Below, piece after piece: positions 1 through 64,000 of a stretch of 64,000 nt of DNA. The position numbers and the translations under genes are program-made. The stretch covers positions 10 through 64,009 of the forward strand of contig JAIKVY010000246.1 of NCBI GenBank assembly GCA_024685275.1, written 5' to 3'. The number at the start of each line of letters is the position of its first letter. The first letter of the stretch is position 1. The notes under the pieces were generated by a model that saw only the letters and a program-made list of their open reading frames with translations, was not told the origin of the DNA and ran no database searches. Origin of the DNA: Clostridia bacterium. GTDB lineage: Bacteria; Bacillota; Clostridia; Christensenellales; DTU072.

Positions 1-3000
1 TCAATTTTAATGGAAAAATATAAACGTAAAATGGTTATAGATGCATTATACGACACATATTATCTTGGACAAACAAAAGAATCGGCAAGAGAAACATATA
101 AGGCAAAGATAGAAGAATGTAAAAACTTAGCAAAAGCGGAGGTTATAACTCCAGTAGCATTATGCATGCTAAATGAAATGGAAAGTAGATTAGCTGGAAG
201 TTCTACTCCATATAGCAATTATATACCACGTTTACTAAAGGAAGATGATAGCTATAACTTAACAAATTACAATATCAATGATTCAATAGAAGCAAGAATA
301 TTTGCTAAATACATGAAATATGTTAAAAACGGAAACGATGCAAGAAGCGAATATATTAATGAAAAGATTCAACAATTAATAGAAGAACAAATTACAAATT
401 ATTATGGCGATATTATTGAAAAACTTAATGCTGAGGGGGGAAATGTTAATTCAGCATATGAATCAGCTGACTTTATTAAAGCAGGAATATATCTTGCTAA
501 ATTAAACAAAACGAATATTGTTGTTTCAATTGATGATTACATTGGTAATTTTGGCAGCATAAATGATAAAACTGGATATAACACAGCAAGAGCAAATATC
601 ATTGCTCAAACATTAATGGAAGAAGCTAATTTGGCTGGTGGACACTTAACAGAGAATGAAATACAAGATATTGTTAATAAATATTTAAATAACTATGCAA
701 TGAGAGCTTTGGTATATTTCTATGATAATCTAGCTACAAGTGAAGAAAAAACGATAATAGAAATAATTATTGAAAAAGAAGCAAAGAAGAATTTAAGTAC
801 AGATAGATATCCAATAGAAACAGAAATTATTAAGCAAATTAAATCATTTGAAAATATAAGCATAAAGAACATCTTTAATGCGATAAAACAAAGAGCTGAT
901 TTCAATAATATGGAAGCAATAGAAATAAGTTATAACTATATTTTCTTAACTTCAGCTATGGATGATATTTATTATGAAATAGAAAATGAATCTGGAAGCG
1001 CAAATTGGTATATTAATAATACAGGATTATATACAAAATACAGAGCAATGATATTAGATTTACTAAAAGCTGCTACTCAAAAAGATTCGATAGATGAAAG
1101 CGAAGGAATCTTATTTAATAATGAAAACCAAGAATTGGGTGAATATATAGATAAACTTGTAGAAATAATTGTTTCTGCTTACTACAAAGATAGAGTTGTT
1201 AATGTTAATAACGGGTTATATTCAAAAACTGAAGCTGAAAAAACAGAATTATTACCAAGCATCAAAAAACAAGTAGTAAAAATGTTGTTAAATGATGAAA
1301 ACTATTCTGAAGTATTCAAATCAATAGCAATGAAGCTAATAGATAAATTGATTGATCAAAATAATACTGAAGAAGCTTTTTATGAAGTTGTATATAACAA
1401 TATTAGAGATATTCTTGTAGAGGAAAGAACAGAACAATTTAAAGAAACAATACTAAGAAGTATTGAAGAAATGATTTTAAATGATGTATTTAATACTGTT
1501 TCATTATTCAAAACAACAGTTGAAGAATATAAATCAAAGATGTATTCAATATTAACAAATGGTGAAATATATTATGAAAGAGATTTTGATTCATTAATTA
1601 ATAAATTTATCACTGAATATAATAGAGATAATATAGATGGTTCTATATATGAAAGCATTAAGAATAAAATAAGAACAAACGATGATAAGAATTGGTGGGA
1701 TGGTCAAGAAATCTGGTGGGGCAAACAAGGCAGTAGCTTCCTTGATGATGCTGAAAAAGAAGTTATCAACCAGTTATATTTACAATGCTACTATAATACC
1801 AATGATGAAATTATAGCGAAAATAAATCACATCTTAGCAATAGCAAGAATACTTGAAGAAAGAGATAAATTCTTCGAAAACGGATTAGAAAAAGATTTAG
1901 TAGGAAATGAATTAAAATCTAATGCAAGTTTCATTAAAGAAATAGTTGATGGCAATATTTTAGGTTCAGAAACACTTTTAAGGGCTCACTTAAAAGGATT
2001 AAAGACACAAAAAGCTAAAGAGTATATTGAAGATTTACAAAATCCAAATAATATAATCATATTTGTTAATCGTTTAAACACATATGAAGAATACTTGGAT
2101 GGAATGTTTACAGTTTTAATAACGAATGATGCAATAGATCTAAATGCTGAAACAGGTATTGAAACAAAAGAATATTTGGTTAACACATATGACAATATAT
2201 TAAATAATTTGAAATATACTTCTTGTAGTTTAAGCAAAGAAGAAGCACAAGTAGATAGTGGATTAATAAACAAATATGAAATGATTAAAACATATTACAA
2301 TAATATTTATCAAACAATTATTGGATATGGTGAAATAATTAAAGTGGAAACACTTATGTGGGTTCCATTGAGATGGTATTATTTAGAAGCTGATAAGAAA
2401 TATAAAGCTGCCATAGAAAAAATGGGAGATAGCGAAATATCTGTTAAAGTAACATTCTATTCAGAAGATAATATAGAAGCAGATAGCGAAGAATCTAGAC
2501 ACATATTAATGTTTGATAGAACAACATGGCAAGAATATATTGAGGCTGAGAATAACTCAATTCCAGCAACATTAAATAATGAGAATATTTATTTAAGCAA
2601 CAAAGAAAAATCAGAAATAATTGAAAGAGAAAATGGGACAAAAGAATATACTAATGCATTCAATATGGATGAAGTCAAATTCGCATTAATAGACATAAAT
2701 GATATTAAGTTAAAATTTGAAGGCGAAGATTCACTTAATCACATAACAATAGATGCATTAAATCCAGTTTTACCAAGTGAAGCGACTGGATATGGTAAGG
2801 CTGTTGGATCTGTTGGAATTGGAGAAGAAAATTATAGTTATTTATTAGGAAAAGTTAAGATTACAGAATACAGTGAAGCCTTCTATGAATTAATTTATAA
2901 GAGTTATGAAATAAATACAGTAGAAGAAATGCAAGCATATTCAGTAAGATGTAGAACATATACTGGAGAAATAATTGAAGTTACATTATCAGTAACATAC

Positions 3001-6000
3001 TTGCCTAGAGAAATAGATTCTCTATATACAAACGAAGATTATTATTCTACCAATGCTGAAGAATTAGGCGGAACTATTGTAACTGGAATGTATTCATTAA
3101 ATGATGGGAATAAGAATGTTGTGTATATCGATCCATTAGTTAAGGATACCCATAATGATGTTTCATTCCTTTTACCAACAGAAATTGGTGTAAGATTAAG
3201 CGATGAAAATGAAACAGAATTTTTATTCAAAGATGTAAAATGGTCAGTACAACCTACCTATACACTTGCAGGTACTAGTGGACAATATGTAAAGATAAAT
3301 ATTACATCATATACATACTATGACAGCGCTACATTAACAAATAGAAAAGTTGATATTAACTATTCAACCAAAGTTGTAACGATAACTAATAAAAAGCTTG
3401 GAGAAGAAACAGTAAAGATCTTTAAACTAAGCGATAGCGATAAATATATGTTATCTTGGAACACGTATATTTATATAGAAGATAGAACAGCAAACAAGGT
3501 ATATTATAACAATGAAAATAACTTAAAAGTGTTATTAGGTGAATTAGATTCAACAACAAAGAAGATAGATGCAACAGGATCAAGCATTAGAGTTAATCCA
3601 TATTCACCAGAATATCCAACAGAATTGACAATCGAATTTAATGGAAATGAAGATGTACCAAAAGATGATATGGTAAGTGGAGCAACTTTCACTTTAGTTA
3701 ATAGCAATTCTTTAATTACAATTAATCAACAACCATATTTACAAGGAGATGTAAATAGAGAACTTAATTTTGATGCTGTATTTAAGTATAGTGGATTTAG
3801 CATTATAGTAACATTTAAAGCTATGGATATAAAGATTCCTGATGTAGAAGAAGTTGATAATGGAGATGGAACTACAAGTAAACAATATATTCAGGGTGGA
3901 ACATTGTATTTAATAGCTAACCAAGATTCAGCAAATAATCAAGTTAGAGATTTCTATAACCATGTTTACTACAACTTTGGAACAGAAGAAGAACCGAATT
4001 GGCAAAAAGTACCACTTCACTTTGAAACATCAACATTGAACCAAATATCAACAGCAAATCCTAATACGTATGAAAATGTTAAAGCAACGATTGGTGCAAG
4101 TCAATCTGGTGTTCTCTCTCAAAACATCGAATTTACAATAAAAGTAGTTAACGTTGATGCGTTAGCAACTATGGAATCCGATGAAACAGGATTTAATAAG
4201 TATGTAGAATATACGTATTTGAGTGTTCCTGTCGATTCAAAGAATAATTTGAGAATAATAAATGGAGCACCAAATTATATTGGAAAGAATTTCTTTGCAT
4301 ATGATCAAAATGATGGCTCATTAATTGAATATTTTGTAGGAACATATGATTCTACAGAATCTATTGCAACCACAACAGCCAAATTTAATTTTGTTGATAA
4401 GACGGTAATGTTGCCAATTAGTTACAAAAATAATAAAAATATCTCAAATAAGATCGCATTTAATTCAGATGGAGACAAAGATGTAGTTATCCAATACATA
4501 ATGAAAATGAATAGTTATGTATATGAAAATGTTAAATCAGTAGAATTAAATTCGGATTCAACAGGTAAGAAATGGAAATGGACAAGTGTTAACAAGGAAA
4601 GCGAGAATTATGTAGATGCTTTATTCTGGCCACTTGGTGTAAGTATGAATACAGATGATTTACCAACTTTAATTAATACAGATACAGGCGAAGAAATCAA
4701 GGTATATTGGGATTTATCAGAGTTAAATGTAAATAAAGCCAACACACAATATACATATGTTGATGGTGAAACAAAACTCGAAGGCGGAAAAGAAATAACT
4801 GGTTGGTATATAGGAAATAACAATATTTGGAATTCTATACCATTAATCGTATATATTGATAAAGTTGATATTCATGAGCAAATATTAGCAAAAATATCAG
4901 CAGAATTAGATAAAACAAGTATATTAAGTGGAGAATACTCAAAAGAATATGATGGTCAGTTTGTAAAAATAGAAATAGATCTAAATGAATTTAGTGTAAT
5001 AAGAGAAAACGGAAAAATTGAACCATTAGAAGGTAATGATTTTACTATTACATACTATGAAGTATTAAATGAATCAGAATATATAGAAATAGATGGCTAT
5101 CCAATTAATGCTGGAACATATTTTGTTAGAATCAATATTAATGATTACAACATAGAATGTGTAAACGATAATAGATATGATAGTTTAATAATGATATATA
5201 TTGATAAAACAACAATAGACTTATCAACATTTAAGTTTGAGGGAGAAGAAGTTGATAGTAATGAAATAGAACTTAAGTATGATGGAAAACAGAAATCTAT
5301 TTCTATTAGTTCTGGAATTCCACTTGTTGCTGTTGATAATTGGTTTGAACCTGGCGAAAAGGAAGAATTATTCAACAAATATAGAAATGTTGCAGGAGCA
5401 ACTGATGAAATAGCAAAGAGCCAAGTATATGATACTATATATTTAAGAGTTAGCGAGATAGCGCAACAAAAACTCACCGATTGGTATGATTTGGTACAAA
5501 GAAGATTAAATACAAATAATGTCATAACAATTAAAGCTGGAGTATATGATGAGTTTATGGTATACAATCTAAAAATTGAAGAAGCTGTATTTAGTATTTC
5601 TTACAAGAAAGATGGTATTCCAACACAAAATCTTTCAGATTGTGGAAGATATAGTGCTGAAGTAGTATTTAAAGAAGGCGAGATTGGAAACGAAAACTAT
5701 GTATTAATTAACACAAAGACAATTAATATTTCTATTGTTAAAAATGAAGAAATAGAATATAGATTTACGAGTGATTTAGTAGTATATAATGGGACATATC
5801 AAAATCCAAGAATAAACGGAATAAATGGAGAAGAAGGTTCTAGTATTCCAAGTGGAGTTATAATTAAATATACATATTCAGCAAGAGATATAGATGAATA
5901 TACTGTAACGTATGATGGAAATTATACATCAACAAAAGTATCAACTAGCGGGGCAATTATTACTGGAATTAAAGATGTTGGAGAGTATTATTACACTGTA

Positions 6001-7302
6001 CAAATAATCGGTGGCAATAACTATATTGACGGAGTATTTAGTGGAACTGTAAGAGTTATTCCTGCAGATATGTATATTGATATCAATAATCAAACTATTG
6101 AATATCTTGATGATGTTCCAACAATTGCAAATCAAATAGTGGTTTATACATCTAGATATCCGGAAGGAGATAGGGATAAATTATTAGAAAATGATAAATT
6201 ATCAAGTTTAGGAACTGTTGTATTTACTGATACTGGTATAAATAAGAACTCACCAGTTGGAACTTATTATATTAAGATATTAGGTTTAAGAGCAGATGGA
6301 CAAAGCGTAGATCAAACATTTACTAAATTTGCTAGTGCTGATAACGATAAATTGAATCCATATGCAAATAAGAATTCAAGAAAAATAGAAATAAAAGCAG
6401 GTTCAGAACCAGGAAGTATTGCTCTTGATGATAGAGAAGAATATAAGAATATTATAGCTTTATTTAATAACTATAATGTATATGTTTCATTTATTAAGAG
6501 TGATGGTGAAGATAATGAAAGCGCTGCTAGATACACTATTACAACAAAGAGTGCAATAGAAGGACAAGAAAAGGTATATGCTGTTGATTCTAATGAAGAA
6601 TTAATAGATGTTTTAGCAAGAATAAATAGCAATTTAGATCAAGAACCTGAAGTTTCTATTTATTTAACACCTCTTGATAATGGATTATCATATAATGATA
6701 TAACTATTAACACAAATAAGAGAGTAAATATTATCGGTTATTATGATGTGATTGATAGTAGTAAGATAGCAACAAAGGTTAATTCATTGAATATTATTAA
6801 GTGCGATATGATTAACTTAAATATCTTATCAATTAATATTACTACTTCAAATAAAACAGCTATAAGTGTAGGAAAGATGGTTGGCAATATTGTTATTGAA
6901 AGATGTAACATAACATCAACAACATTAACATCTACATTTGGAATTTATACAGAAGATTATTATTCAGGCACAATGACTGTAAAACAATCAACAATATCTA
7001 ACTTCGATACGGCAATAAGAATCCATAAAGGATTCCTTGAAGTAAAGAATTGTTCGTTCTATAGAAATATAACAGATATTAAAGCAGAAGATACGACAAC
7101 GAATTTAATAGTAACAAATAACTTGTTTAATGGTTCACAAACAGCAATTAATTCAGGTATATATACCAACATTTCAATTAAAGAAAATACATTTGAGTAT
7201 CTCTATATTGGAATACAAATTGAATTAACAATTAATAATGATATTTACTTACAAAACACATATACAGAAGTAAACATACCAGTAAAAATCTCCGCTGATT
7301 AA
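1..7302 (+). CDS. C-terminal >=2,430 aa of a giant secreted/surface protein; the 5' end probably lies outside the window
   Basis: The frame is open from nt 1 (TCA ATT TTA precede the first ATG at 10, with no stop) to TAA at 7300-7302. There is no RBS and no signal peptide at that Met. The composition is N/I/Y/E/K-rich. nt ~1-2330 is Gly/Pro-poor and looks helical. nt ~2330-6400 is beta-rich (T/Y/G/N/V) and carries Big_4-like signatures: FLLPTEIGVRLSDENETEFLFKDVKWSV (nt 3165-3249) and LPTLINTDTGEEIKVYWDLS (nt 4660-4719). Every other-frame ORF inside it is <=140 aa. Confidence 0.85.
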   Translation, partial: SILMEKYKRKMVIDALYDTYYLGQTKESARETYKAKIEECKNLAKAEVITPVALCMLNEMESRLAGSSTPYSNYIPRLLKEDDSYNLTNYNINDSIEARIFAKYMKYVKNGNDARSEYINEKIQQLIEEQITNYYGDIIEKLNAEGGNVNSAYESADFIKAGIYLAKLNKTNIVVSIDDYIGNFGSINDKTGYNTARANIIAQTLMEEANLAGGHLTENEIQDIVNKYLNNYAMRALVYFYDNLATSEEKTIIEIIIEKEAKKNLSTDRYPIETEIIKQIKSFENISIKNIFNAIKQRADFNNMEAIEISYNYIFLTSAMDDIYYEIENESGSANWYINNTGLYTKYRAMILDLLKAATQKDSIDESEGILFNNENQELGEYIDKLVEIIVSAYYKDRVVNVNNGLYSKTEAEKTELLPSIKKQVVKMLLNDENYSEVFKSIAMKLIDKLIDQNNTEEAFYEVVYNNIRDILVEERTEQFKETILRSIEEMILNDVFNTVSLFKTTVEEYKSKMYSILTNGEIYYERDFDSLINKFITEYNRDNIDGSIYESIKNKIRTNDDKNWWDGQEIWWGKQGSSFLDDAEKEVINQLYLQCYYNTNDEIIAKINHILAIARILEERDKFFENGLEKDLVGNELKSNASFIKEIVDGNILGSETLLRAHLKGLKTQKAKEYIEDLQNPNNIIIFVNRLNTYEEYLDGMFTVLITNDAIDLNAETGIETKEYLVNTYDNILNNLKYTSCSLSKEEAQVDSGLINKYEMIKTYYNNIYQTIIGYGEIIKVETLMWVPLRWYYLEADKKYKAAIEKMGDSEISVKVTFYSEDNIEADSEESRHILMFDRTTWQEYIEAENNSIPATLNNENIYLSNKEKSEIIERENGTKEYTNAFNMDEVKFALIDINDIKLKFEGEDSLNHITIDALNPVLPSEATGYGKAVGSVGIGEENYSYLLGKVKITEYSEAFYELIYKSYEINTVEEMQAYSVRCRTYTGEIIEVTLSVTYLPREIDSLYTNEDYYSTNAEELGGTIVTGMYSLNDGNKNVVYIDPLVKDTHNDVSFLLPTEIGVRLSDENETEFLFKDVKWSVQPTYTLAGTSGQYVKINITSYTYYDSATLTNRKVDINYSTKVVTITNKKLGEETVKIFKLSDSDKYMLSWNTYIYIEDRTANKVYYNNENNLKVLLGELDSTTKKIDATGSSIRVNPYSPEYPTELTIEFNGNEDVPKDDMVSGATFTLVNSNSLITINQQPYLQGDVNRELNFDAVFKYSGFSIIVTFKAMDIKIPDVEEVDNGDGTTSKQYIQGGTLYLIANQDSANNQVRDFYNHVYYNFGTEEEPNWQKVPLHFETSTLNQISTANPNTYENVKATIGASQSGVLSQNIEFTIKVVNVDALATMESDETGFNKYVEYTYLSVPVDSKNNLRIINGAPNYIGKNFFAYDQNDGSLIEYFVGTYDSTESIATTTAKFNFVDKTVMLPISYKNNKNISNKIAFNSDGDKDVVIQYIMKMNSYVYENVKSVELNSDSTGKKWKWTSVNKESENYVDALFWPLGVSMNTDDLPTLINTDTGEEIKVYWDLSELNVNKANTQYTYVDGETKLEGGKEITGWYIGNNNIWNSIPLIVYIDKVDIHEQILAKISAELDKTSILSGEYSKEYDGQFVKIEIDLNEFSVIRENGKIEPLEGNDFTITYYEVLNESEYIEIDGYPINAGTYFVRININDYNIECVNDNRYDSLIMIYIDKTTIDLSTFKFEGEEVDSNEIELKYDGKQKSISISSGIPLVAVDNWFEPGEKEELFNKYRNVAGATDEIAKSQVYDTIYLRVSEIAQQKLTDWYDLVQRRLNTNNVITIKAGVYDEFMVYNLKIEEAVFSISYKKDGIPTQNLSDCGRYSAEVVFKEGEIGNENYVLINTKTINISIVKNEEIEYRFTSDLVVYNGTYQNPRINGINGEEGSSIPSGVIIKYTYSARDIDEYTVTYDGNYTSTKVSTSGAIITGIKDVGEYYYTVQIIGGNNYIDGVFSGTVRVIPADMYIDINNQTIEYLDDVPTIANQIVVYTSRYPEGDRDKLLENDKLSSLGTVVFTDTGINKNSPVGTYYIKILGLRADGQSVDQTFTKFASADNDKLNPYANKNSRKIEIKAGSEPGSIALDDREEYKNIIALFNNYNVYVSFIKSDGEDNESAARYTITTKSAIEGQEKVYAVDSNEELIDVLARINSNLDQEPEVSIYLTPLDNGLSYNDITINTNKRVNIIGYYDVIDSSKIATKVNSLNIIKCDMINLNILSINITTSNKTAISVGKMVGNIVIERCNITSTTLTSTFGIYTEDYYSGTMTVKQSTISNFDTAIRIHKGFLEVKNCSFYRNITDIKAEDTTTNLIVTNNLFNGSQTAINSGIYTNISIKENTFEYLYIGIQIELTINNDIYLQNTYTEVNIPVKISAD
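4926..6330 (+). repeat. Tandem MBG-like (YDG ... G.Y ... NY) beta-sandwich repeats within the partial giant protein
   Basis: These motifs recur at ~90-110 aa spacing: KEYDGQFVKIEI / INAGTYFVRININDYN; LKYDGKQKSISI / DCGRYSAEVVFKEGEIGNENYVL; VVYNGTYQNPRI / DVGEYYYTVQIIGGNNYIDG; PVGTYYIKILGL. The pattern resembles MBG (YGX-type) domains of large Gram-positive adhesins. The assignment is by eye only. Confidence 0.45.
6700..7260 (+). repeat. Right-handed parallel beta-helix (PbH1/pectate-lyase-like) repeats at the C-terminus of the partial giant protein
   Basis: There are ~22-25-aa coils with the N/I/T pattern typical of PbH1 repeats: NIVIERCNITSTTLTSTFGIYTED, MTVKQSTISNFDTAIRIHKG, LEVKNCSFYRNITDIKAED, LIVTNNLFNGSQTAINSG, ISIKENTFEYLYIGIQIE. 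Confidence 0.6.
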
Positions 7303-7475: not shown

Positions 7476-7896
7476 TTATTTTGCGGTTAAAAAATCAAAT
7501 AATCCATCCAAGAGAACTTGAAGTTTTTGTACGCTTTCTTCAGCAATTTGTTCGATTTGCTTTTCGGTAAAATCATCAGACTCCATGCATAATAGCTAAG
7601 TTTAATCCTTTGTATTCAGCAAACACCAAATTGCTTGCGTGCGTTGGGGCAGTGGAAACAGGAAAGCCTTTTAGCTTTTACATTAAATCCGTTCACGTAA
7701 TCACCTAAGCCTGTACCAAGCACAACGATTACCTCTGGTTTGAAATCAGTAATTTTTTCAATCTGTTCTTTACAAGAAACAAGACGTTGCTCGTATGTTT
7801 GTTCTTGCGCTTCTTTTTTAGTGTCACATCCGTAAAGACAAGCTATCAACATTATTAAAGCGATGAAATACGATAATATGGACAAAACTTTTTCAT
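7476..7896 (-). pseudogene. Decayed purine nucleoside phosphorylase (PunA/PNP family I) remnant carrying a lipoprotein-type signal; it has frameshifts and a large internal deletion
   Basis: Minus-strand reading shows an AAGAGG RBS and ATG at 7896-7894 (MKKF...). A 1-nt frame change in AAAAAGTTTT leads into the track ORF, whose first codon is TTG: SILSYFIALIMLIACLYGC...KPEVIVVLGTGLGDYVNGFNVKAK. This matches the PNP N-terminal P-loop region (cf. B. subtilis PunA PKIGLILGSGLGILADEI). A second frame change gives AFPVSTAPTHASNLVFAEYKGLNLAIMHGV* (cf. PunA [32 protein letters not shown]). About 190 aa of core is missing. A tail ORF, MESDDFTEKQIEQIAEESVQKLQVLLDGLFDFLTAK*, ends at 7476. Confidence 0.7.
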
Positions 7897-7962
7897 ATTA
7901 AACCTCTTTTTTTTGATGGGATATAATAAACACATTATGTTGCCGATAATTTAAGTGATATC

Positions 7963-8499
7963 TTATTCGCTCTTTTTATCTTCTAATAATTTAATAATTT
8001 CTTTTAATAATTCATTAGTTTCATTATTATCAGCAACTGGAGCTGGAGCAGGTTCTTCAACAGCTGGAGCAGTGGTTTCTTCAACAACAGCTTCGGCTGT
8101 CTCTTCTTTTTTATCAGCTTTTAATTTTTCTAAATTTGATTTTGCTTTTTCAGCAGCCTTAGCAGATGCTTTTCTTAAAGAGTTAAATACTTTAACTATA
8201 ATGAATAAAACGAGAGCTGTTAATAAGAATGTGATAATAGCAGAAATAACAGCACCAAAGTCTAAAATAACAGCAGGTTTAAGAATTTCACCAGCTTCAT
8301 TAAATACAGGTTCTTTTAAAAGAACTTGTAATGCGCTACCATCAGTTCCTGGAATCATATTAAGAAGTGGGGTTAAAATTCCACTTACAACAGCGGTAAT
8401 TATTGCAGTAAATGCTGCACCTATAATCATACCAACTGCAAGATCCATTACATTACCTTTAGAGATAAAATCTTTAAATTCTTTAAATAATTTTTTCAT
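7963..8499 (-). CDS. mscL: Large-conductance mechanosensitive channel MscL (178 aa) with a long acidic/Pro-Ala-rich C-terminal tail
   Basis: MKKLFKEFKDFISKGNVMDLAVGMIIGAAFTAII is the canonical MscL N-terminus/TM1. A GGAGGA RBS lies 7 nt upstream of the ATG at 8499, so the track start at 8514 is an upstream in-frame extension. The tail reads ...EETAEAVVEETTAPAVEEPAPAPVADNNE... Confidence 0.9.
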   Translation of the reverse strand: MKKLFKEFKDFISKGNVMDLAVGMIIGAAFTAIITAVVSGILTPLLNMIPGTDGSALQVLLKEPVFNEAGEILKPAVILDFGAVISAIITFLLTALVLFIIVKVFNSLRKASAKAAEKAKSNLEKLKADKKEETAEAVVEETTAPAVEEPAPAPVADNNETNELLKEIIKLLEDKKSE

Positions 8500-8554
8500 G
8501 TCTAAATCCTCCAATTTTAGTTATATTTATTACAAAAAAACCTTAATATTGGTT

Positions 8555-9193
8555 TTATTTGTTTACCTTTTCATCAAAATAAGTTGCTTCCATATCTGAA
8601 ATATGGAATAAAACAGCAAGAGGGTATTTTTCAAACGCTAAGCTAAGAGAATTATCTCCACCTAAAACACGTCTATCAAATCCACCCATATGCCAGTTAA
8701 TACAAATTGCTTCCATATAATCTAAGTGAATATATTGATTTAGCAAGAAGACAGATTTTTCACCATGCCCAAAAGGAAATTTTTCATCTATAGCATAGTA
8801 TTCTTTTTTCTCCCATTTGCCAGTTTCTTCATTTTTGTAATTTCTTAAATCAAGTTTATAGTAATTAGCTTTACATATATCATGGAAAAGAGAAATAATA
8901 GCTCTAGATTCATCGTTTAACTCTACATTGAACTTTTCTTTAAGTTCCTTTTTTTCATTTTCATAGTTCTTTTCAAATCTATGATATACATTTAAACTAT
9001 GTTCACATAAGCCACCTTTATAATTCCCGTGATATTTTGTTGATGCAGGAGCCTTGAAAAAATCGCTAGTTCCATCAAGCCATTCATCCACAAATTTAGA
9101 AATACCATCTCTTTTAATTTTGCTATCTACGATATGTAGAAATTCTCTACGGTTATTAGCAATTTCATCTTCAGTTAGTTGAATATTTGACAT
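8555..9193 (-). CDS. HD-domain metal-dependent phosphohydrolase (YhaM-type HD fold without an OB domain)
   Basis: Motifs present: STKYHGNYKGGLCEHSLNV, LFHDICK and GHGEKS. An AAGGA RBS precedes the ATG. Confidence 0.7.
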   Translation of the reverse strand: MSNIQLTEDEIANNRREFLHIVDSKIKRDGISKFVDEWLDGTSDFFKAPASTKYHGNYKGGLCEHSLNVYHRFEKNYENEKKELKEKFNVELNDESRAIISLFHDICKANYYKLDLRNYKNEETGKWEKKEYYAIDEKFPFGHGEKSVFLLNQYIHLDYMEAICINWHMGGFDRRVLGGDNSLSLAFEKYPLAVLFHISDMEATYFDEKVNK

Positions 9194-9209
9194 AAAATGA
9201 TCCTTTTAA

Positions 9210-10568
9210 TTAGTATTTATTATTTTCTCTCTCTAAATAAGCCAACTGTTGTTCTCTAGTTCTATATCTATTTATATCTATTACACAATCATGTAACAAA
9301 TTGTTTAAAACATTTTTTCTTTCAACTGGAGGTATTTTAGTAAAAGTATGAACAAAATCGTATCCATTAACTTTTAACTCTGAAACAGAGAAAGGGACTT
9401 GTTCAGCGAGCATTTCATTTCTCACTTTAAGTAAGTCTTCAGCAGATTCTAAAACATCTCCTTCAGCAAGGCCACCACCTTTCCAATCGGCATACTTTAT
9501 TAAATATATTTTATCTAAATATTTATTATATTTCAATACAAACAAGCGTTGTTTATTAATAGAAGTTTTTCTATCTTGGTTAAACATATGAGTTAAAACA
9601 AGTGTAGCTGTCTCATCAATTATTTCTTTCGAATAGCAAAGTCTTGTTAAAATCTTTCTACACATTTTTTCGCCATAGTAATCATGACCTCTATAATATC
9701 CAAATGTTAATTTACAATATGGTTTTGCAATATCATGCATCAAAGCGCCTAATCTAACTGAGACATCAGCTTCTTTTACAGTGTGTAAAATATGATAATA
9801 GACGTCATATTTATGATAATCTGGGCGTTGTTCTAATCCATATCCAAGTGTTAATTCAGGCAAGATAATTTCCAAAACACCAATTTCTCTTAAAATATCA
9901 AACCCGTTAATTATGGCATCTGAAACACCATATTTAATATCCGAAACCAACAATAAATTAAGTTCATCCTTTATTCTTTCAGGAGAAATATCCTTGATTA
10001 AAGAAGCATGAATAGTGGCTTCTTTTTTAGTATTTTCATCAATTGTAAAATCTAGAGAGGCAGCAAATCTAGCTAAGCGCATTAAGCGTAATCCATCTTC
10101 AGCAAAAACTAATTCTGGAGCTCGAGTAGTTCTAATAGTTTTTTTCTCTAAATCATTAAGTCCTAGATTAAGTGGGTCTAATAACATTTCTTTCTTCACA
10201 TCATAATATAGAGCATTTATTGTAAAATCTCTTCTTTGAGCATCAATAGAAATATCATTAGTACAAACTACATCATTGGGCCTATGTCCAGAAGTATAAC
10301 TATCTATTCTAAAAGTAGTATATTCATATCTTGATTCTTTTCCAATTATACAAAGAGTCATCATTTTCTTACTTTCAACATGTACGATGAAAGGAGAGTT
10401 TTCTAAGTATTTTATTACTTCATTAGGAGTTGCTGGTCCACATAAATCACAATCATGTTCAACATAATTAAGTAAAGAATCTCTAACATAGCCTCCAACG
10501 ACAAAAAGATCTTTTTCAAATAGAGTGGATAATTGTTTTAATTCTTCCGGTATTGTTATATTAGGCAT
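9210..10568 (-). CDS. cca: CCA-adding tRNA nucleotidyltransferase (class II, with C-terminal HD domain)
   Basis: Motifs present: LFVVGGYVRDSLL head motif, DCDLC (DxD), RRDFTINALYYD and HDIAKP (HD). It overlaps the hpt stop by 8 nt. Confidence 0.85.
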   Translation of the reverse strand: MPNITIPEELKQLSTLFEKDLFVVGGYVRDSLLNYVEHDCDLCGPATPNEVIKYLENSPFIVHVESKKMMTLCIIGKESRYEYTTFRIDSYTSGHRPNDVVCTNDISIDAQRRDFTINALYYDVKKEMLLDPLNLGLNDLEKKTIRTTRAPELVFAEDGLRLMRLARFAASLDFTIDENTKKEATIHASLIKDISPERIKDELNLLLVSDIKYGVSDAIINGFDILREIGVLEIILPELTLGYGLEQRPDYHKYDVYYHILHTVKEADVSVRLGALMHDIAKPYCKLTFGYYRGHDYYGEKMCRKILTRLCYSKEIIDETATLVLTHMFNQDRKTSINKQRLFVLKYNKYLDKIYLIKYADWKGGGLAEGDVLESAEDLLKVRNEMLAEQVPFSVSELKVNGYDFVHTFTKIPPVERKNVLNNLLHDCVIDINRYRTREQQLAYLERENNKY

Positions 10569-11115
10569 TTTTAGTGTATATTTCCTCTTTTAAAATACTG
10601 ATATCAGGAAGATTTCTATACAACTGATTATAATCAAGGCCAAAACCAACAACAAATTTATCTGGAATTTCGAAACCAATATAATCGCCTTCAATTTCAA
10701 CTTTTCTTCTAGATGGTTTATCTAATAAAGAACAAATCTTTAAAGATTTTGGATTTCTTTGAGCGAGTATTTTCTTTAAATACGAAAGGGTAGTTCCAGT
10801 ATCAATAATATCTTCTACAACAATTAAATCCTTACCAGCAACAGGCATGCTTATATCTCTAGTAATACTTACTTCACCGCTGCTAACAGTTCCTTTATAA
10901 CTTGAAACGGACATAAATTCCAAATAGCAAGGTTTATCTATTAATCTTGTTAAGTCTGTAAAGAAATAACAGCTTCCTCTTAAAATACACACCATAACTA
11001 AACTATCGCTATCTTTATAGTCATCATTAATTTGCTTTGCTATTTCAGCTATTCTTTTTTCTATTTCATCTTTAGTAATTAAGATTTTTTCTAAGTCATT
11101 AAATTGGTTATTCAT
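10561..11115 (-). CDS. hpt: Hypoxanthine-guanine phosphoribosyltransferase
   Basis: It has the PRPP-binding motif LIVVEDIIDTGTTLSYL and the C-terminal FVVGFGLDYNQLYRNLPDI. The start is taken at the ATG at 11115, which has a GGAGGG RBS (the track start at 11130 lies further upstream). It overlaps the tilS 3' end by 8 nt. Confidence 0.9.
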   Translation of the reverse strand: MNNQFNDLEKILITKDEIEKRIAEIAKQINDDYKDSDSLVMVCILRGSCYFFTDLTRLIDKPCYLEFMSVSSYKGTVSSGEVSITRDISMPVAGKDLIVVEDIIDTGTTLSYLKKILAQRNPKSLKICSLLDKPSRRKVEIEGDYIGFEIPDKFVVGFGLDYNQLYRNLPDISILKEEIYTKNA

Positions 11116-12397
11116 TTTTCCCTCCAACACGTTTTTTTACGATATGTATTATTTTATTTGTATCATCTGTGATTTTAGCATCATCAGCTGTATCTACACC
11201 GAGAATAGCATATATTTTTTTACCACTAGCCAAAACAAGTAATTCATCCTTTATTGGTTTAGAAAGTTTCAAGTCTGTTAAGAAATTACTTAAAGATTTT
11301 GTTCTACCATTAACACGTTTAAAAGTATCGCCTGGTAATCTCTCTCTAATAACAGCATCTTCTGGAATCTTATCAAAATCTAAACTTGATCCCATTTCGA
11401 TGTTATTTGCTTCAACAAAAGAGTATGAAACGCCTTTAAAGGTATATACCATGTTTAAATCGAAAGGGCACTCTTTAAAGAATTCGGTTCCTTGCTTTGT
11501 AAAGATTAAATCTTTCCAGTGTTTTGTTACAACCAAACCAAAAGGTATATCAATAGATGTATTACTTGGTTTCTTTGCTAAAGATAAGATGCTTTCAATG
11601 TGTCTTGTTTCAAAATCTTGTTGGTGTCCCATTTTCTTAATGGCAAGCATAATAGAGTATTTTTGAAGAACCTCAGGTTGACCAAAAACATTGTATATAA
11701 CGTAACCATGATTTGTTCTGGTTGGTTGAATTGCTTCTTTTACCAAATATTCGTCTGCTTCTTTAGCTGAAGTAGATATTTTTGTTAATGAATTTAAGAA
11801 AGCAGGGTATCTTTCTTTAATAAGAGGCATTAATGTATACCTAACATAGTTTCTAGTATAAGATGTATCACTATTAGTTTCATCTTCAATATGTTCAATG
11901 TTATTTTTAACAGCAAATTTTGTTATTTCATCTCTTGAATATTTTAATAGAGGACGAATATAATTTTCAGATGAAGTGATTCCAATTAAGCCTCTTAATC
12001 CAGATCCTCTGAATAGGTGCATAAGGATAGTTTCAGCATTATCATCAGCGTGGTGAGCTAAAGCAATAGCATCAACAACATGAGTTTTTATTAATCTATC
12101 AAAAACCTCATATCTAAGTCTTCTAGCACAAGTTTCAATGCTTTCGCCTTGTCCTTTTGATTCATTTACATTTACAGAGAATGTTTGAAATTCACAGTTA
12201 TTTTCTTCACAAAATTTTCTAACAAAATCGGTATCTCTTAAACTTGTTTCACCACGAATTCCGTGTTCAATGTTGATAACTATAAAATCTTTTTGACCAG
12301 CTTTAATGTAACAATAAAGCATTGTCATGCTATCGATTCCACCACTTACAGCGATTCCTAATTTGCCTTTAAATTTTTGAACACTTATATTTTTCAT
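11108..12397 (-). CDS. tilS: tRNA(Ile)-lysidine synthetase
   Basis: It has the PP-loop GIAVSGGIDSMTML and an N-type ATP-pyrophosphatase fold. It sits immediately upstream of hpt, the conserved tilS-hpt order. Confidence 0.85.
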   Translation of the reverse strand: MKNISVQKFKGKLGIAVSGGIDSMTMLYCYIKAGQKDFIVINIEHGIRGETSLRDTDFVRKFCEENNCEFQTFSVNVNESKGQGESIETCARRLRYEVFDRLIKTHVVDAIALAHHADDNAETILMHLFRGSGLRGLIGITSSENYIRPLLKYSRDEITKFAVKNNIEHIEDETNSDTSYTRNYVRYTLMPLIKERYPAFLNSLTKISTSAKEADEYLVKEAIQPTRTNHGYVIYNVFGQPEVLQKYSIMLAIKKMGHQQDFETRHIESILSLAKKPSNTSIDIPFGLVVTKHWKDLIFTKQGTEFFKECPFDLNMVYTFKGVSYSFVEANNIEMGSSLDFDKIPEDAVIRERLPGDTFKRVNGRTKSLSNFLTDLKLSKPIKDELLVLASGKKIYAILGVDTADDAKITDDTNKIIHIVKKRVGGKNE

Positions 12398-12451
12398 ACA
12401 AATATTTTACTATACGAAAAGTGCATAATCAACAAAGTTTTTTTATTTATA

Positions 12452-12485
12452 ATAAAAAAGGAGAGCATAGAAATCCATACTCTCC
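12452..12485 (-). terminator. Rho-independent terminator after the alcohol dehydrogenase gene
   Basis: On the minus strand, GGAGAGTAT-ggatttct-ATGCTCTCC forms a 9-bp stem with one G:U pair, followed by TTTTTT. It lies ~27 nt after the stop. Confidence 0.75.
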
Positions 12486-12511
12486 ATAAATAAAATAGTA
12501 TTTAGAAATAA

Positions 12512-13765
12512 TTATTCAGCTTTTGATTCTTGTTTGTCTTCAACCACTGGTTCTTCTTTAGCAACTGAAGTTTTTCCCATAATTTCATAATACATATTTG
12601 TCATTTCTTTTTTACCCATAAACTTTGGTACAGGATAAAGTGGATTAGCTTCTTTTAATGAATGTTCAACCATTGTAGGAATATCTTCTTCTCTAATCTT
12701 ATCAATAGTTGTAGGAATATTCATTCTTTCATTCATTTCCTTTATTCTACGAATAAATTCTTTTGCTTGTTGTTCAACTGTTCCTTGAATACCAACAGCA
12801 TTAGCTAATTCAGCAAGTTTAACCCAAGCTGATTTTCCAAAATAGTCGAGAACATGTGGTAAAATAACAGCATTAGCTAAGCCATGAGGAACTCCATATT
12901 GTCCGCCGAGCGCATGAGCAATAGCGTGAACATATCCAACATATGAACGAGTAAATGACATACCTGCTAAATAAGAAGCTTCTTGCATTTTCTTTCTCTT
13001 CTTTAAATCAGAACCATCATTGTAAACATCTTCGAGATTTTCAAATATTAATTTTGTAGCCTTAATAGACCAATCTCTTGTTTGAGCAGTTGTTGATTTA
13101 CCAATATATGCTTCAACGGCATGTGTTAAAGCATCCATTCCTGTTGTAGATGTGATATGTGGTGGTAATCCTAATGTTAAAGATGGATCAAGAACAGCAT
13201 ATTTTGGAATTAAAACAGGATCATTAATTGGATATTTCTCGTGTGTTTCAGGATTTGAAATAACTGCAGCAACTGTAGCTTCACTTCCAGTCCCGCTTGT
13301 TGTTGGAACAGCAAAAATTGTAGGAATAGCTTTTCTAACTTTTAAAGTTCCTTTCATTTGTGGAATTGTTTTGTCAGGCCTAGCAACTCTAATACCAACA
13401 CCTTTAGCACAATCCATTGGGGATCCGCCACCAAATGCAACGATAGCATTAGCGCCTATTTCATTATACATTTGATATGCTTCTTCGATATTTTGTATTG
13501 TTGGGTTTGGAACAGTCTTATCATATACAGCATATTTGATTCCTTTTTCATCAAAATCAGCTTTTAATGGATCAATTAATTTTCCTTTATTATGAAGGAA
13601 ATCATCTGTGACAATTAAGATAGAAGTATAGCCTTCTTCTTGTACTTTGTTAGCTAAACGTCCAAGACCATCAATTAATTCTGGTTGTCTAAAATTCATC
13701 AATTTCATTCCAATCTTGAAACAAAATTGATAACATCTACAGTAACATTTACTAAATATATTCAT
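12512..13765 (-). CDS. Iron-containing (group III) alcohol dehydrogenase
   Basis: Motifs present: AFGGGSPMDCAKG, metal-binding His motifs HAVEAY and HALGGQYGVPHGLANAVILPHVL. An AGGAGG RBS lies 6 nt upstream of the ATG. Confidence 0.85.
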   Translation of the reverse strand: MNIFSKCYCRCYQFCFKIGMKLMNFRQPELIDGLGRLANKVQEEGYTSILIVTDDFLHNKGKLIDPLKADFDEKGIKYAVYDKTVPNPTIQNIEEAYQMYNEIGANAIVAFGGGSPMDCAKGVGIRVARPDKTIPQMKGTLKVRKAIPTIFAVPTTSGTGSEATVAAVISNPETHEKYPINDPVLIPKYAVLDPSLTLGLPPHITSTTGMDALTHAVEAYIGKSTTAQTRDWSIKATKLIFENLEDVYNDGSDLKKRKKMQEASYLAGMSFTRSYVGYVHAIAHALGGQYGVPHGLANAVILPHVLDYFGKSAWVKLAELANAVGIQGTVEQQAKEFIRRIKEMNERMNIPTTIDKIREEDIPTMVEHSLKEANPLYPVPKFMGKKEMTNMYYEIMGKTSVAKEEPVVEDKQESKAE

Positions 13766-13974
13766 TACATGCCTCCTAAAAAATTATTAAATATAATTTA
13801 ATAAATTCTAACACTTAATATCTTCAAACGCAACAAAAAAGAGATAAAAAATGATATAAGAAAAACATTCAAAATAAGTTAAAATTTAGCATATAAGAAT
13901 AAACAATATTGAAATAATTAATATGTAATAAATTGAATATTGGGCAACAAAACAACGAAGAAAAGATAACGATT

Positions 13975-14784
13975 CTACCAATCTTCTGTTTTGTTTGTCA
14001 TTTTTATATCATCATAAAAAGATTTATATTTTGTTGAAAAATCATTAACTTCGCTAAATCCATGAATTTCATTTTCTGAGGCATTTATGTCAAAATCAGC
14101 TTCTTTTTTTATTACCATTTTCGATGGTTGTTTTTCAAATAATTCAGGAAAAATGATAGGGTATAAATCATATCTATTTGAAATAACTTGTCTATTTGTT
14201 TTTGATAACTGGCTGTGAGAATTATGTCCTCCTTCAATTAGAACACAATCAACATTTAAGCTTGTGGCAACTTCACTATCATGCACCGTATCACCGACCA
14301 TTAAAATATTTCCGCTCAAGTTATATTGTTCTATTAAAGATTTTCCAATACTAATTTTACCATGGGCAAAAGTATTGTCGCATCCACCAATTCCATCAAA
14401 GTATTTACTAATACCATAATGCTCAAGTGATTCAATCACGATATTTTTTTCAGAAGCAGTTAAAATGTATTGTTTAATATTCTTGCTCTTAATCACTGCA
14501 AGAACCTCTTTAACTTCTTTGAATAGAGATGGTTCATATTTTCTTTTTTCGTATTCAGCGGTATATTCGTTTGCCATTATTTCAAATGGCTCGTCACTAA
14601 AATCAAAACCTAATTCTTTGTAATAATCAATAACAGGAAATTTAAAAAGTTTTCTATATTGATCTACTGTTGGAACCGGCAAATTACGTTTAATTAATGA
14701 TGGGGCAATGGATGCAACGCTAGTTGTTGTGTCATCAAGCAATGTTCCATTCCAGTCCCAAAAAATAATGTCATATTTTGCCAT
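13975..14784 (-). CDS. HAD-superfamily hydrolase (phosphoglycolate-phosphatase-like) with a ~70-aa C-terminal extension
   Basis: Motif I is IIFWDWNGTLLDD. It also has the cap-domain pattern, ILTAS (motif II-like) and MVGDTVHD (motif IV). The start is taken at the ATG at 14784, 10 nt after an AAAGGA RBS; the track start at 14790 is a TTG. Confidence 0.75.
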   Translation of the reverse strand: MAKYDIIFWDWNGTLLDDTTTSVASIAPSLIKRNLPVPTVDQYRKLFKFPVIDYYKELGFDFSDEPFEIMANEYTAEYEKRKYEPSLFKEVKEVLAVIKSKNIKQYILTASEKNIVIESLEHYGISKYFDGIGGCDNTFAHGKISIGKSLIEQYNLSGNILMVGDTVHDSEVATSLNVDCVLIEGGHNSHSQLSKTNRQVISNRYDLYPIIFPELFEKQPSKMVIKKEADFDINASENEIHGFSEVNDFSTKYKSFYDDIKMTNKTEDW

Positions 14785-14804
14785 GAACAATAAATCCTTT
14801 CGTA

Positions 14805-15371
14805 TTAATATTTCTTTATACCAGTATAAAGAGTATCAAGATACAAATCTAGTTTTTCGTTAATAATATTTACAGCTTCAATTTCATTATTTGCGCCATA
14901 TGTTTTATCATCAGGAATATTTTCAAATCTAATTCTATCATCTAGTCTTGTGTTAGCTAATTTTTTAGACCATCCTTCAACAGAAGTATAGCAAATAATT
15001 AATTTTTTTAAAGACCACGCATTAGCAACTTCAGATAAGGTTCCAGCTCCGCCTCCAACCATAATAACAGCATCAGCAGTTGCGACCAAAACATTTCTAT
15101 ATAAATCCATTCCTGTCGGAATAACGATATCACTATAACCATTATTTTGGCTGCGATTAAAGCTTGGCAAAAGAGCAATAGTTGCTCCTTCAAAATATTT
15201 AGAAGAATCTTTTGCCCCTTTAAATACAGCTTCCATTATTCCGCCCATTCCACCGCTTTGAACTCTATATCCATTATCTACTAATAACTTCCCAGTTCTA
15301 TATGCAAGTTCATATTTTTCACTTCCAGGTTTAGCGTCTGCATTTCCAATTACAGCAATTATTTTTTTCAT
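14805..15371 (-). CDS. LOG/TIGR00725-family Rossmann-fold protein (the so-called lysine decarboxylase-like family)
   Basis: Motifs present: SGGMGGIMEA and VGGGAGTLSEV (the PGGxGTxxE-like LOG motif). An AAGGAG RBS is present. Confidence 0.7.
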   Translation of the reverse strand: MKKIIAVIGNADAKPGSEKYELAYRTGKLLVDNGYRVQSGGMGGIMEAVFKGAKDSSKYFEGATIALLPSFNRSQNNGYSDIVIPTGMDLYRNVLVATADAVIMVGGGAGTLSEVANAWSLKKLIICYTSVEGWSKKLANTRLDDRIRFENIPDDKTYGANNEIEAVNIINEKLDLYLDTLYTGIKKY

Positions 15372-15780: not shown

Positions 15781-15858
15781 ATGAAGAATAGAAAAAAGTT
15801 TTTATCAGTATTTATTTTAATTGTCTGCATAGTACTAGCACTATGCATGGTTGCATGT
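15781..15858 (+). other. Lipoprotein signal peptide with lipobox (cleavage before Cys26)
   Basis: MKNRKKFLSVFILIVCIVLALCMVAC|SERV has a basic n-region, a hydrophobic core and M-V-A-C. It is followed by a G/S linker, NNQGGGSSSGSGQ. Confidence 0.8.
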
Positions 15859-63655: not shown

Positions 63656-64000
63656 ATGAGCAACACAATAAAGAAATTTTTTGGAGATATAGATATATTA
63701 AATGGACCAATACTTAAAAACGTATTGCTCTTTGCTTTGCCTATAGCTCTAAGTGGAATTCTCCAATTATTATTTAATTCTGCAGATGTCGCTGTAATAG
63801 GGTTATATGAAAATAGCATTTCTCAAGCAGCAGTTAATAGTAATGGTGCAATCGTAAATTTAATAGTTCAACTATTTATTGGGTTATCAACAGGAGCAAC
63901 TGTTTTAATAGCTAAAAATATAGGTGGTGGAAATACTGATGATATTAAAAGTATGGTCTTTACATCTTTATTTATAGCAATTATTTCTGGCTTTATAGTC
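63656..64000 (+). CDS. MATE-family efflux transporter, N-terminal 115 codons (runs off the 3' window edge)
   Basis: This ORF is not in the supplied track. Translation from ATG 63656 gives MSNTIKKFFGDIDILNGPILKNVLLFALPIALSGILQLLFNSADVAVIG...LSTGATVLIAKNIGG, the typical MATE N-terminus. The frame is open to nt 64000. Confidence 0.75.
   Translation, partial: MSNTIKKFFGDIDILNGPILKNVLLFALPIALSGILQLLFNSADVAVIGLYENSISQAAVNSNGAIVNLIVQLFIGLSTGATVLIAKNIGGGNTDDIKSMVFTSLFIAIISGFIV

Follow-up and report, generated by a model that had tools for sequence, protein, structure and literature searches.

The window analysed here is a 64,000-nucleotide (nt) stretch of contig JAIKVY010000246.1 from a Clostridia bacterium, and it opens inside a very long gene on the plus strand (nt 1-7302), the product of which is called A below. 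A second giant gene of the same strand (nt 15781-53232) encodes a protein of 12,483 amino acids (aa), called B. Three questions are raised by this locus: is A a complete protein, what does its C-terminal part form, and do A and B belong to one family, as proposed in an earlier note made from the sequence alone? The reading we favour, at a probability of about 0.7, is that A is the distal part of a lipoprotein of approximately 5,500 residues from an uncharacterised family. Such a protein would probably be surface-exposed and fibrillar, and its C-terminus would bind, or possibly cut, a polysaccharide.

Truncation of protein A and its collinear relatives

Frame 1 of the plus strand contains no stop codon from nt 1 until the TAA at 7300-7302, that is, for 2,433 codons. 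The first ATG is at nt 10, and the three codons ahead of it are likewise open to the window edge. With the base composition of this region (A 0.43, T 0.29, G 0.17, C 0.11), one codon in about 10 should be a stop. A run of 2,433 codons without one has a probability of about 10^-107, and the longest run in the other five frames of the region is 151 codons. Thus the open reading frame (ORF) is a genuine coding sequence. No hydrophobic segment was found in its translation, the maximum 19-residue Kyte-Doolittle mean being 1.08, which leaves no candidate for a signal peptide, a membrane segment or a C-terminal anchor in the visible part of A. Only 9 nt (TCAATTTTA) precede the ATG. They contain no GGAG-type or other Shine-Dalgarno-like motif, such as is present upstream of several other genes of the window, and they are too short for a verdict on the ribosome-binding site. 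The database record of A (NCBI nr) is a singleton of 2,430 aa that begins at this ATG.

Word-indexed homology searches with the whole 2,433 aa yielded A itself only, those with the C-terminal 800 aa yielded nothing, and those with the family alignment yielded A and P0006. An exhaustive HMMER search with A aa 1-1200 identified the first four of the following relatives:

P0002, 5,222 aa: relative of A
P0003, 5,584 aa: relative of A
P0004, 2,143 aa: relative of A, N-terminus cut
P0005, 2,639 aa: relative of A, C-terminus cut
P0006, 3,888 aa: shorter relative with lipobox FAMASC, 29% GC

Residues 215-2425 of A align with P0003 3358-5575 in one collinear blastp segment with 30% identity. Similarly, A 224-2077 is collinear with P0002 3359-5182, and A 801-2381 with P0004 563-2097. 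The blastp E-values are 0.0 across 1,600-2,350 aligned residues; P0002 and P0003 are 45% identical to each other over 5,200 aa. A scan of species-representative genomes added two further loci. One, L084, comes from 'MAG: Clostridia bacterium isolate MAG134' (49% GC) and contains an ORF that exceeds 5,874 aa and matches A with E 5e-96; the left end of this ORF is not closed, and judging from the collinear P0003 its full length could be ~6,700 aa. The other is a family fragment in 'uncultured Clostridiales bacterium RUG11154'.

Since A is collinear with the C-terminal part of relatives 5,222 to more than 5,874 aa long, starting at their residue ~3,358, the A gene is, as judged by sequence comparison, the C-terminal fragment of a much larger lipoprotein gene, and the contig ends inside the helix-rich region of the latter. 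By this collinearity A represents the distal ~44% of a ~5,500-aa protein, and ~3,100 residues (~9.4 kb) are absent upstream.

A bacterial lipoprotein is recognised by an N-terminal signal peptide ending in a lipobox, [LVI][ASTVI][GAS]C. The full-length relatives open with a lipoprotein signal followed by an Asp/Gly-rich linker (MINKRTKLILLLLTLVLVVSMLGLVAC in P0003, …FALSSC in P0002). The lipobox residues are LVAC in P0003 (…MLGLVAC), LSSC in P0002 and MASC in P0006 (…FAMASC). Thus the earlier note was right in describing a frame open from nt 1, a protein without a signal peptide and the C-terminal part of something larger, and the lipobox that it expected upstream is present in the full-length relatives.

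Collinearity to the C-terminus and a conserved genomic position place A in the unnamed family of ~5,500-aa lipoproteins to which P0002, P0003, P0004, P0005 and the L084 ORF belong. The GC content of genomes carrying the family is 29-51%, and one of them is rumen-derived by its name. Pfam and NCBIfam scans of A, whole and in pieces, gave sub-threshold matches only, and viral contigs contained no match to A. Taken together, the comparisons indicate a real, uncharacterised and nearly Pfam-dark family in uncultured Clostridia-type bacteria.

The window covers almost the entire contig of 64,079 nt, up to 79 nt of which are outside it. A circular contig, with the A frame continuing from the right end, was ruled out, as the sequence at the right end belongs to an unrelated gene. 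The latter encodes a MATE-type efflux transporter, starts at window 63656-64000 and runs off the right end. As genes are cut at both ends, the contig is linear and broken within genes. Scans with A aa 1-500 produced no match in genome or metagenome contigs. The neighbouring HD-domain protein, used as a query, identified 80 metagenome loci at only ~50% identity, none of them with an A-like gene. The large ORFs adjoining the HD gene in three of the loci (L008, L050, L051) are unrelated to A.

Domain organization and the C-terminal beta-helix

The full-length relatives start with the lipoprotein signal peptide and its lipobox cysteine, followed by the Asp/Gly-rich linker, ~1,350 aa of N-terminal beta-rich modules and more beta modules. 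Then come a helix-rich region (~1,500 aa, as estimated by eye), beta-sandwich modules totalling ~830 aa, four MBG-like modules and a right-handed beta-helix of 240 aa. The window shows the part from the end of the helix-rich region through the beta-helix, with the following features:

nt 1-7302, plus strand: partial coding sequence, the last 2,433 codons and TAA of a predicted giant lipoprotein gene (open frame; collinear with P0003, P0002, P0004 and the L084 ORF)
nt 1-642, plus strand: aa 1-214, divergent stretch of the helix-rich region, rich in helix-forming residues
nt 643-2400, plus strand: aa 215-800, helix-rich, Tyr/Asn/Glu-rich (blastp collinearity; conserved motifs YYYLTGE and WW; composition)
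nt 2401-3699, plus strand: aa 801-1233, best-conserved core, beta-rich, FYSED…RHxxxFDRTTW…IDALxPxLPS (family alignment)
nt 3130-3270, plus strand: aa 1044-1090, Big_4-like unit (PF07532, sub-threshold)
nt 3700-4899, plus strand: aa 1234-1633, beta-rich modules, …MYYNFGTxxEPNWQKVPL… and …TGKKWTWT… (family alignment; common to P0006)
nt 4900-6570, plus strand: aa 1634-2190, four MBG-like (Ig-type) modules with YDG, AGTY and NY motifs (sub-threshold Pfam matches, hhalign)
nt 5317-5559, plus strand: aa 1773-1853, conserved helical insert in module 2 (AlphaFold2 pLDDT 76-83)
nt 6577-7299, plus strand: aa 2193-2433, predicted right-handed parallel beta-helix, or tip (AlphaFold2, Foldseek, BFVD; conserved in the family)

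The tip is predicted with confidence. Single-sequence AlphaFold2 modelling of A aa 1634-2433 was uninformative, with a predicted local distance difference test (pLDDT) value of 35, and the model of the tip was built from a five-sequence family alignment. In this model the block pLDDT is 70-92 over most of the tip, with one 10-residue block at 61, and regular short strands are formed. In a Foldseek comparison with PDB the best match is a polysaccharide lyase (PL) family 6 alginate lyase, 8bwk_C (E 3e-4, probability 1.0). It is followed by the pectate lyases 7xks (PL1, 0.98) and 1ru4 (PL9, 0.99), the pectin methylesterase 4pmh (0.97), the glucanase 3eqn (0.97) and tailspikes. The identity in these matches is 11-15%, and the target-normalised template modelling (TM) scores are 0.19-0.35. 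The viral structure library BFVD gave right-handed beta-helix and pectate-lyase-superfamily matches. The models thus let us predict with confidence that the C-terminus of A folds as a right-handed parallel beta-helix, which is the fold that the earlier note had proposed for nt 6700-7260.

Sequence models of such domains are silent. Pfam returned no family for A aa 2101-2433 at E <= 10, including the Beta_helix, NosD and Pectate_lyase_3 models that the earlier note had named for a scan and the lyases, and no NCBIfam beta-helix or lyase model matched the tip. Columns conserved in the five sequences belong mostly to the hydrophobic core. Two polar residues, E2347 and N2356, are invariant; K/R2267, D2249 and D/E2414 are conservative, and D/N2237 and D/N2239 are further conserved polar positions. 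No correspondence of these residues to a known active site could be established, and no recognisable set of Ca2+-binding residues and catalytic Lys/Arg is seen in the five sequences.

The same tip is present in every family member with a visible C-terminus, namely P0003, P0004, the L084 ORF, P0002 (together with its frameshifted 310-aa ORF, see below) and P0006. The MBG-like modules in front of the tip are likewise common to these members. P0006 has ~1,300 aa at its N-terminus and ~1,050 aa at its C-terminus in common with the long members, and has no counterpart of their middle, including the helix-rich region. By sequence, the tip is therefore the conserved part of the family and the middle is the variable one. 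This contradicts the idea, put forward in the earlier note, that the distal modules are the exchangeable ones.

The four modules preceding the tip resemble MBG domains, as the earlier note had said of nt 4926-6330. The pattern sought was that of repeated modules of ~90-130 aa with YDG … (N)AGTY … NY, and the Pfam models PF17883, PF18676 and PF18887 were applied with their gathering scores. Such motifs are visible in the translation of A: KEYDGQF…INAGTYFV…DYNI, LKYDGKQ…DCGRYSA…NENY and VVYNGTY…DVGEYYY…GNNY. Modules 1 and 2 (A 1677-1771 and 1860-1940) match each other in hhalign with 80-84% probability. However, the MBG model PF17883 scores only 18.7 bits on A aa 1638-1712, below the gathering score of 23.3 (E 0.0024). 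MBG_3 (PF18887) on the orthologous third module of P0003 is also below its threshold, with 22.5 against a cut-off of 25 (E 1.3e-4), and there is no MBG match at E <= 0.1 in P0004, L084 or P0006. The AlphaFold2 confidence in these modules is low to moderate. Thus the coordinates in the earlier note were accurate, whereas the assignment to MBG stays below the Pfam cut-off.

The Big_4-like modules mentioned in the same note reduce to a single unit at aa 1044-1090, where PF07532 scores 13.5 bits against a gathering score of 22.1 (E 0.054). Faint Big_4 matches occur likewise in P0006, in the first giant gene of its locus (L082) and in the giant upstream neighbour of P0002 described below. The core that contains this unit has many invariant columns, with aromatic and Gly/Pro positions; its identity to the relatives is 34-41% over aa 801-1000 and 22-38% over aa 1001-1200. 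The beta-rich modules that follow extend the similarity to P0006 (A 1198-1587 aligned with P0006 2833-3209), and AlphaFold2 models aa 1234-1633 as beta strands with low confidence. Residues 215-800 are homologous to the end of the long similar region of the relatives (P0003 ~2,390 to 3,995, judged by eye). No internal repeats were found in A aa 1-1300, and its composition suggests that aa 1-800 are helical.

Gene order around the giant genes

In the window, A and B are both on the plus strand and flank a minus-strand block at 7963-15371, just as stated in the earlier note. The contig of P0004 in the European Nucleotide Archive (L087, 32% GC) has the P0004 gene followed by mscL, cca (CCA-adding enzyme), hpt and tilS on the opposite strand. 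The gene order is that of the window, except for one additional HD-domain gene in the latter. The identity between the encoded proteins is 58-72% for MscL, 52-53% for the CCA-adding enzyme and ~70% for Hpt. As the giant gene is followed by mscL, cca, hpt and tilS on the opposite strand in both cases, A and P0004 are, on the evidence of gene order, positional orthologues and not merely homologues. The mscL gene also follows the A-type genes of L081 (P0003) and L086 (P0002).

Upstream of the latter two genes, at a distance of 33-50 nt and on the same strand, there is a second giant gene (L081 1-9967 and L086 1-9950). Its products (giant-1) have at least 4,104 aa in L081 and at least 4,307 aa in L086, are 44% identical to one another, and are related neither to A nor to B. 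These tandem genes suggest a two-gene operon of giant lipoproteins, and the A gene may likewise be preceded by a second giant gene to the left of the contig end. The P0006 locus (L082/L083, 29% GC) contains three giant genes in a row on one strand, encoding 3,180, 3,888 and more than 2,175 aa. The products of the first two carry a lipobox and that of the third a normal signal peptide. Smaller genes are interspersed, one of them for a 505-aa lipoprotein.

Some of these genes appear to be interrupted. In L086 the beta-helix tip of P0002 is encoded out of frame, by a separate 310-aa ORF (25650-26582) that overlaps the 5,222-aa call at its end. The frame change is a frameshift or an assembly error: P0002 really has ~5,500 aa, and the database protein is ~300 aa short. 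In L087 the P0004 gene contains an in-frame TAA near the 5' end of the contig (193-195), and the same frame continues on both sides of it; a pseudogene, a sequencing error and a split gene are all possible explanations.

Between the A gene and mscL in the window, an apparently broken small lipoprotein gene was observed on the minus strand (7476-7900). It has an ATG near 7893 with an upstream AAAGAGG, a signal-peptide-like ORF …LIMLIACLYGC in a different frame across an A/T run (7616-7885), and an additional piece in yet another frame (7476-7586). It is either a frameshifted pseudogene or a product of homopolymer sequencing errors. A GTG-initiated ORF of 214 aa on the plus strand (7955-8599), antisense to mscL, has a low-complexity Ser/Ala/Leu-rich translation and is almost certainly spurious. 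Scans of the window for Rfam families and tRNAs were negative.

Alternative readings, mechanism and known systems

The proposal of the earlier note that A and B are paralogues from one megaprotein family with swapped distal modules looks unlikely to us. Both proteins are giant and encoded on the plus strand, and B is a lipoprotein like the relatives of A: it starts with the lipoprotein signal …LCMVAC (MKNRKKFLSVFILIVCIVLALCMVAC) followed by a Gly/Ser/Asn-rich linker. Both contain more Tyr, Asn and Thr and less Cys and His than the housekeeping proteins of the window. P0006, with the same ends and a different middle, demonstrates that mosaics do occur in the A family. The only link in sequence is a stretch of ~70 aa: residues 103-175 of B (window 15781-16305 encodes B aa 1-175) match the N-terminal profile of the full-length relatives with 19.7 bits with the signal peptide removed, whereas the best score is 15.7 in 3,000 shuffled sequences and 4.6 in natural decoys. 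In hhalign this match has a probability of 93% (P 3e-7). In A itself the corresponding stretch is outside the window; it may be a segment shared by giant lipoproteins shortly after the lipobox. However, blastp and phmmer comparisons of A with B produced no match (best E 1.1), outside that stretch B has no match to the relatives of A or to their giant neighbours, and profiles of the A-collinear region and of the middle region of the relatives have all-negative scores on B. The motif IDPx…LP, present in 4-6 copies in the full-length relatives, does not occur in B. The possibility that B is the counterpart of giant-1 was rejected, as the giant-1 profile fails on B too. The earlier note was correct in that neither MBG-like modules nor a beta-helix tip have a detectable counterpart in B, which is nearly Pfam-dark with a single above-cut-off match, a CarboxypepD_reg unit at approximately nt 40927-41055. 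The common style of A and B that it had noticed is indeed there in composition and is not accompanied by sequence similarity; it would fit extracellular proteins of an AT-rich genome. Paralogy is thus unsupported and, for the part of A visible in the window, essentially refuted by these sequence comparisons, a lack of similarity between the two proteins being what the earlier note itself had named as grounds for rejecting it; module swapping is at odds with the conservation of the tip.

Still less probable is a free-standing protein of 2,430 aa translated from the ATG at nt 10, either cytoplasmic or a split or pseudogenised remnant of a giant gene. The NCBI record does begin at this ATG, interrupted copies do occur, as the in-frame TAA in the P0004 gene demonstrates, and aa 1-214 of A are poorly conserved. 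But the frame is open through the three codons preceding the ATG to the window edge, the ATG falls at an internal position (~residue 3,150) in all full-length relatives, and the available 9 nt have no Shine-Dalgarno-like motif. Moreover, such a protein would combine extracellular-type composition and domains with no export signal. A third alternative concerns the tip alone and is compatible with the reading of A as the end of a giant lipoprotein. It is that the tip is an enzyme, a polysaccharide lyase, hydrolase or esterase, which a long stalk would tether to the surface and which would degrade alginate-, pectate- or other uronate-type glycans. We consider this doubtful, though better founded than the other two: the best structural matches are enzymes (8bwk, 7xks, 1ru4, 4pmh, 3eqn) and phage depolymerase-like tailspikes, and a few polar positions are conserved (E2347, N2356, K/R2267, D2249, D/E2414). 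On the other hand, the lyase, Beta_helix, NosD and Pectate_lyase_3 models do not match even at E 10, the identity to the enzymes and the TM-scores are low, conservation is concentrated in the hydrophobic core with no recognisable Ca2+-binding and Lys/Arg set, and the helix is short (~240 aa).

Several points weigh against our own reading of A as the distal part of a giant lipoprotein. The start at nt 10 in the NCBI record is, as we read it, a closed-end gene call, but an in-frame stop could be situated in the unseen 79 nt or fewer. The lipobox of the A gene itself is outside the window, so that lipidation is deduced from the relatives. The family members vary in length from 3,888 to more than 5,874 aa, and hence the missing length is approximate. 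Taken alone, A aa 1-214 have no significant similarity (E 0.005-0.15 with the profile of the relatives), though they occupy the collinear position. Single-sequence and profile searches of Pfam, NCBIfam, PHROGs and PDB sequences gave no significant match for the family. Finally, the confident models are those of the tip and of one helical insert, and they come from a five-sequence alignment.

With these reservations, the protein ending in A is most likely a long, lipid-anchored, adhesin-like fibril. The full-length chain would be exported by the Sec system, its N-terminal cysteine would be lipidated so that the protein is held in the membrane, and the remainder would stretch out as a long fibril exposed on the surface. 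Since the lipid anchor is at the N-terminus, the C-terminal beta-helix would be the point farthest from the cell. An anchor followed by a helical and beta-sandwich stalk, Ig-type modules and a terminal beta-helix is the architecture expected of a fibrillar adhesin. A glycan-binding or glycan-degrading role of the tip, as suggested in the earlier note, is plausible from the predicted fold. Most likely its ligand is a polysaccharide present on the mucus of the host, on plant fibre or on another cell; it might possibly also cut this polysaccharide, which we consider less likely. More tentatively, the family and the giant lipoprotein encoded upstream of its members could constitute an undescribed lipid-anchored fibre appendage of uncultured gut and rumen Clostridia, with a non-repetitive helical stalk, new beta-module folds over more than 90% of its length and a beta-helix end that recognises or cuts glycans.

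This analysis defines a conserved, syntenic family of lipoproteins of 4,000-6,000 residues in uncultured Clostridia-type bacteria. A large fraction of the coding capacity of a small genome is spent on such proteins, which probably attach the cell to glycans of the host or its diet. With the modelled tip, a concrete, expressible domain of 240 aa is available for binding or lyase tests. Two ideas are corrected, the paralogy of the two giants in the window and the swapping of distal modules. A warning to annotators is also in order, as the NCBI record of 2,430 aa covers less than half of the gene product.

Giant surface proteins of the adhesin type, containing Ig-like modules and beta-helices, are already known. 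A-type proteins resemble the fibrillar adhesins of Firmicutes, which consist of MBG, Big and Ig-like repeats and a terminal functional domain, in being very long and probably extracellular, with arrays of beta-sandwiches; A also has MBG-like modules beside a beta-helix and a low Cys content. Foldseek matches A to Ig/FN3 arrays such as SiiE and Sap with low probability. Unlike the fibrillar adhesins, no module of A reaches the Pfam gathering score, its relatives are anchored by an N-terminal lipobox and not by LPXTG, an S-layer-homology domain or a C-terminal anchor, and A has a long non-repetitive helix-rich region. The last 240 aa of A share their predicted fold with PL6, PL1 and PL9 lyases, pectin methylesterases of carbohydrate esterase family 8 (CE8) and phage tailspike depolymerases. 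In contrast to these, the tip has no sequence-level match, a shorter helix and no identified catalytic residues, and it is placed at the far C-terminus of a lipoprotein of more than 5,000 aa. B is similar to A in being a giant plus-strand lipoprotein with a similar amino-acid bias and with the ~70-aa stretch common to the relatives of A, and differs in having no other detectable similarity to A or to these relatives.

Clostridia proteins of 10,000-30,000 aa from mammalian gut metagenomes were surveyed in 'Giant genes are rare but implicated in cell wall degradation by predatory bacteria' (bioRxiv 10.1101/2023.11.21.568195). They are described there as built of recognised repeats, namely RCC1, Listeria-Bacteroides repeat, YG repeat, dockerin and LRR, and a role in adhesion or binding was proposed for them in the same paper. 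The family described here similarly consists of giant predicted surface proteins of uncultured Clostridia, but, by comparison with that description, it has none of those repeats and is essentially non-repetitive and Pfam-dark. What appears to be new, as far as sequence comparison can tell, is an unnamed and essentially unannotated family that is largely non-repetitive, is predicted to have a lipid anchor instead of a wall anchor, and keeps its genomic position in organisms with 29-51% GC.

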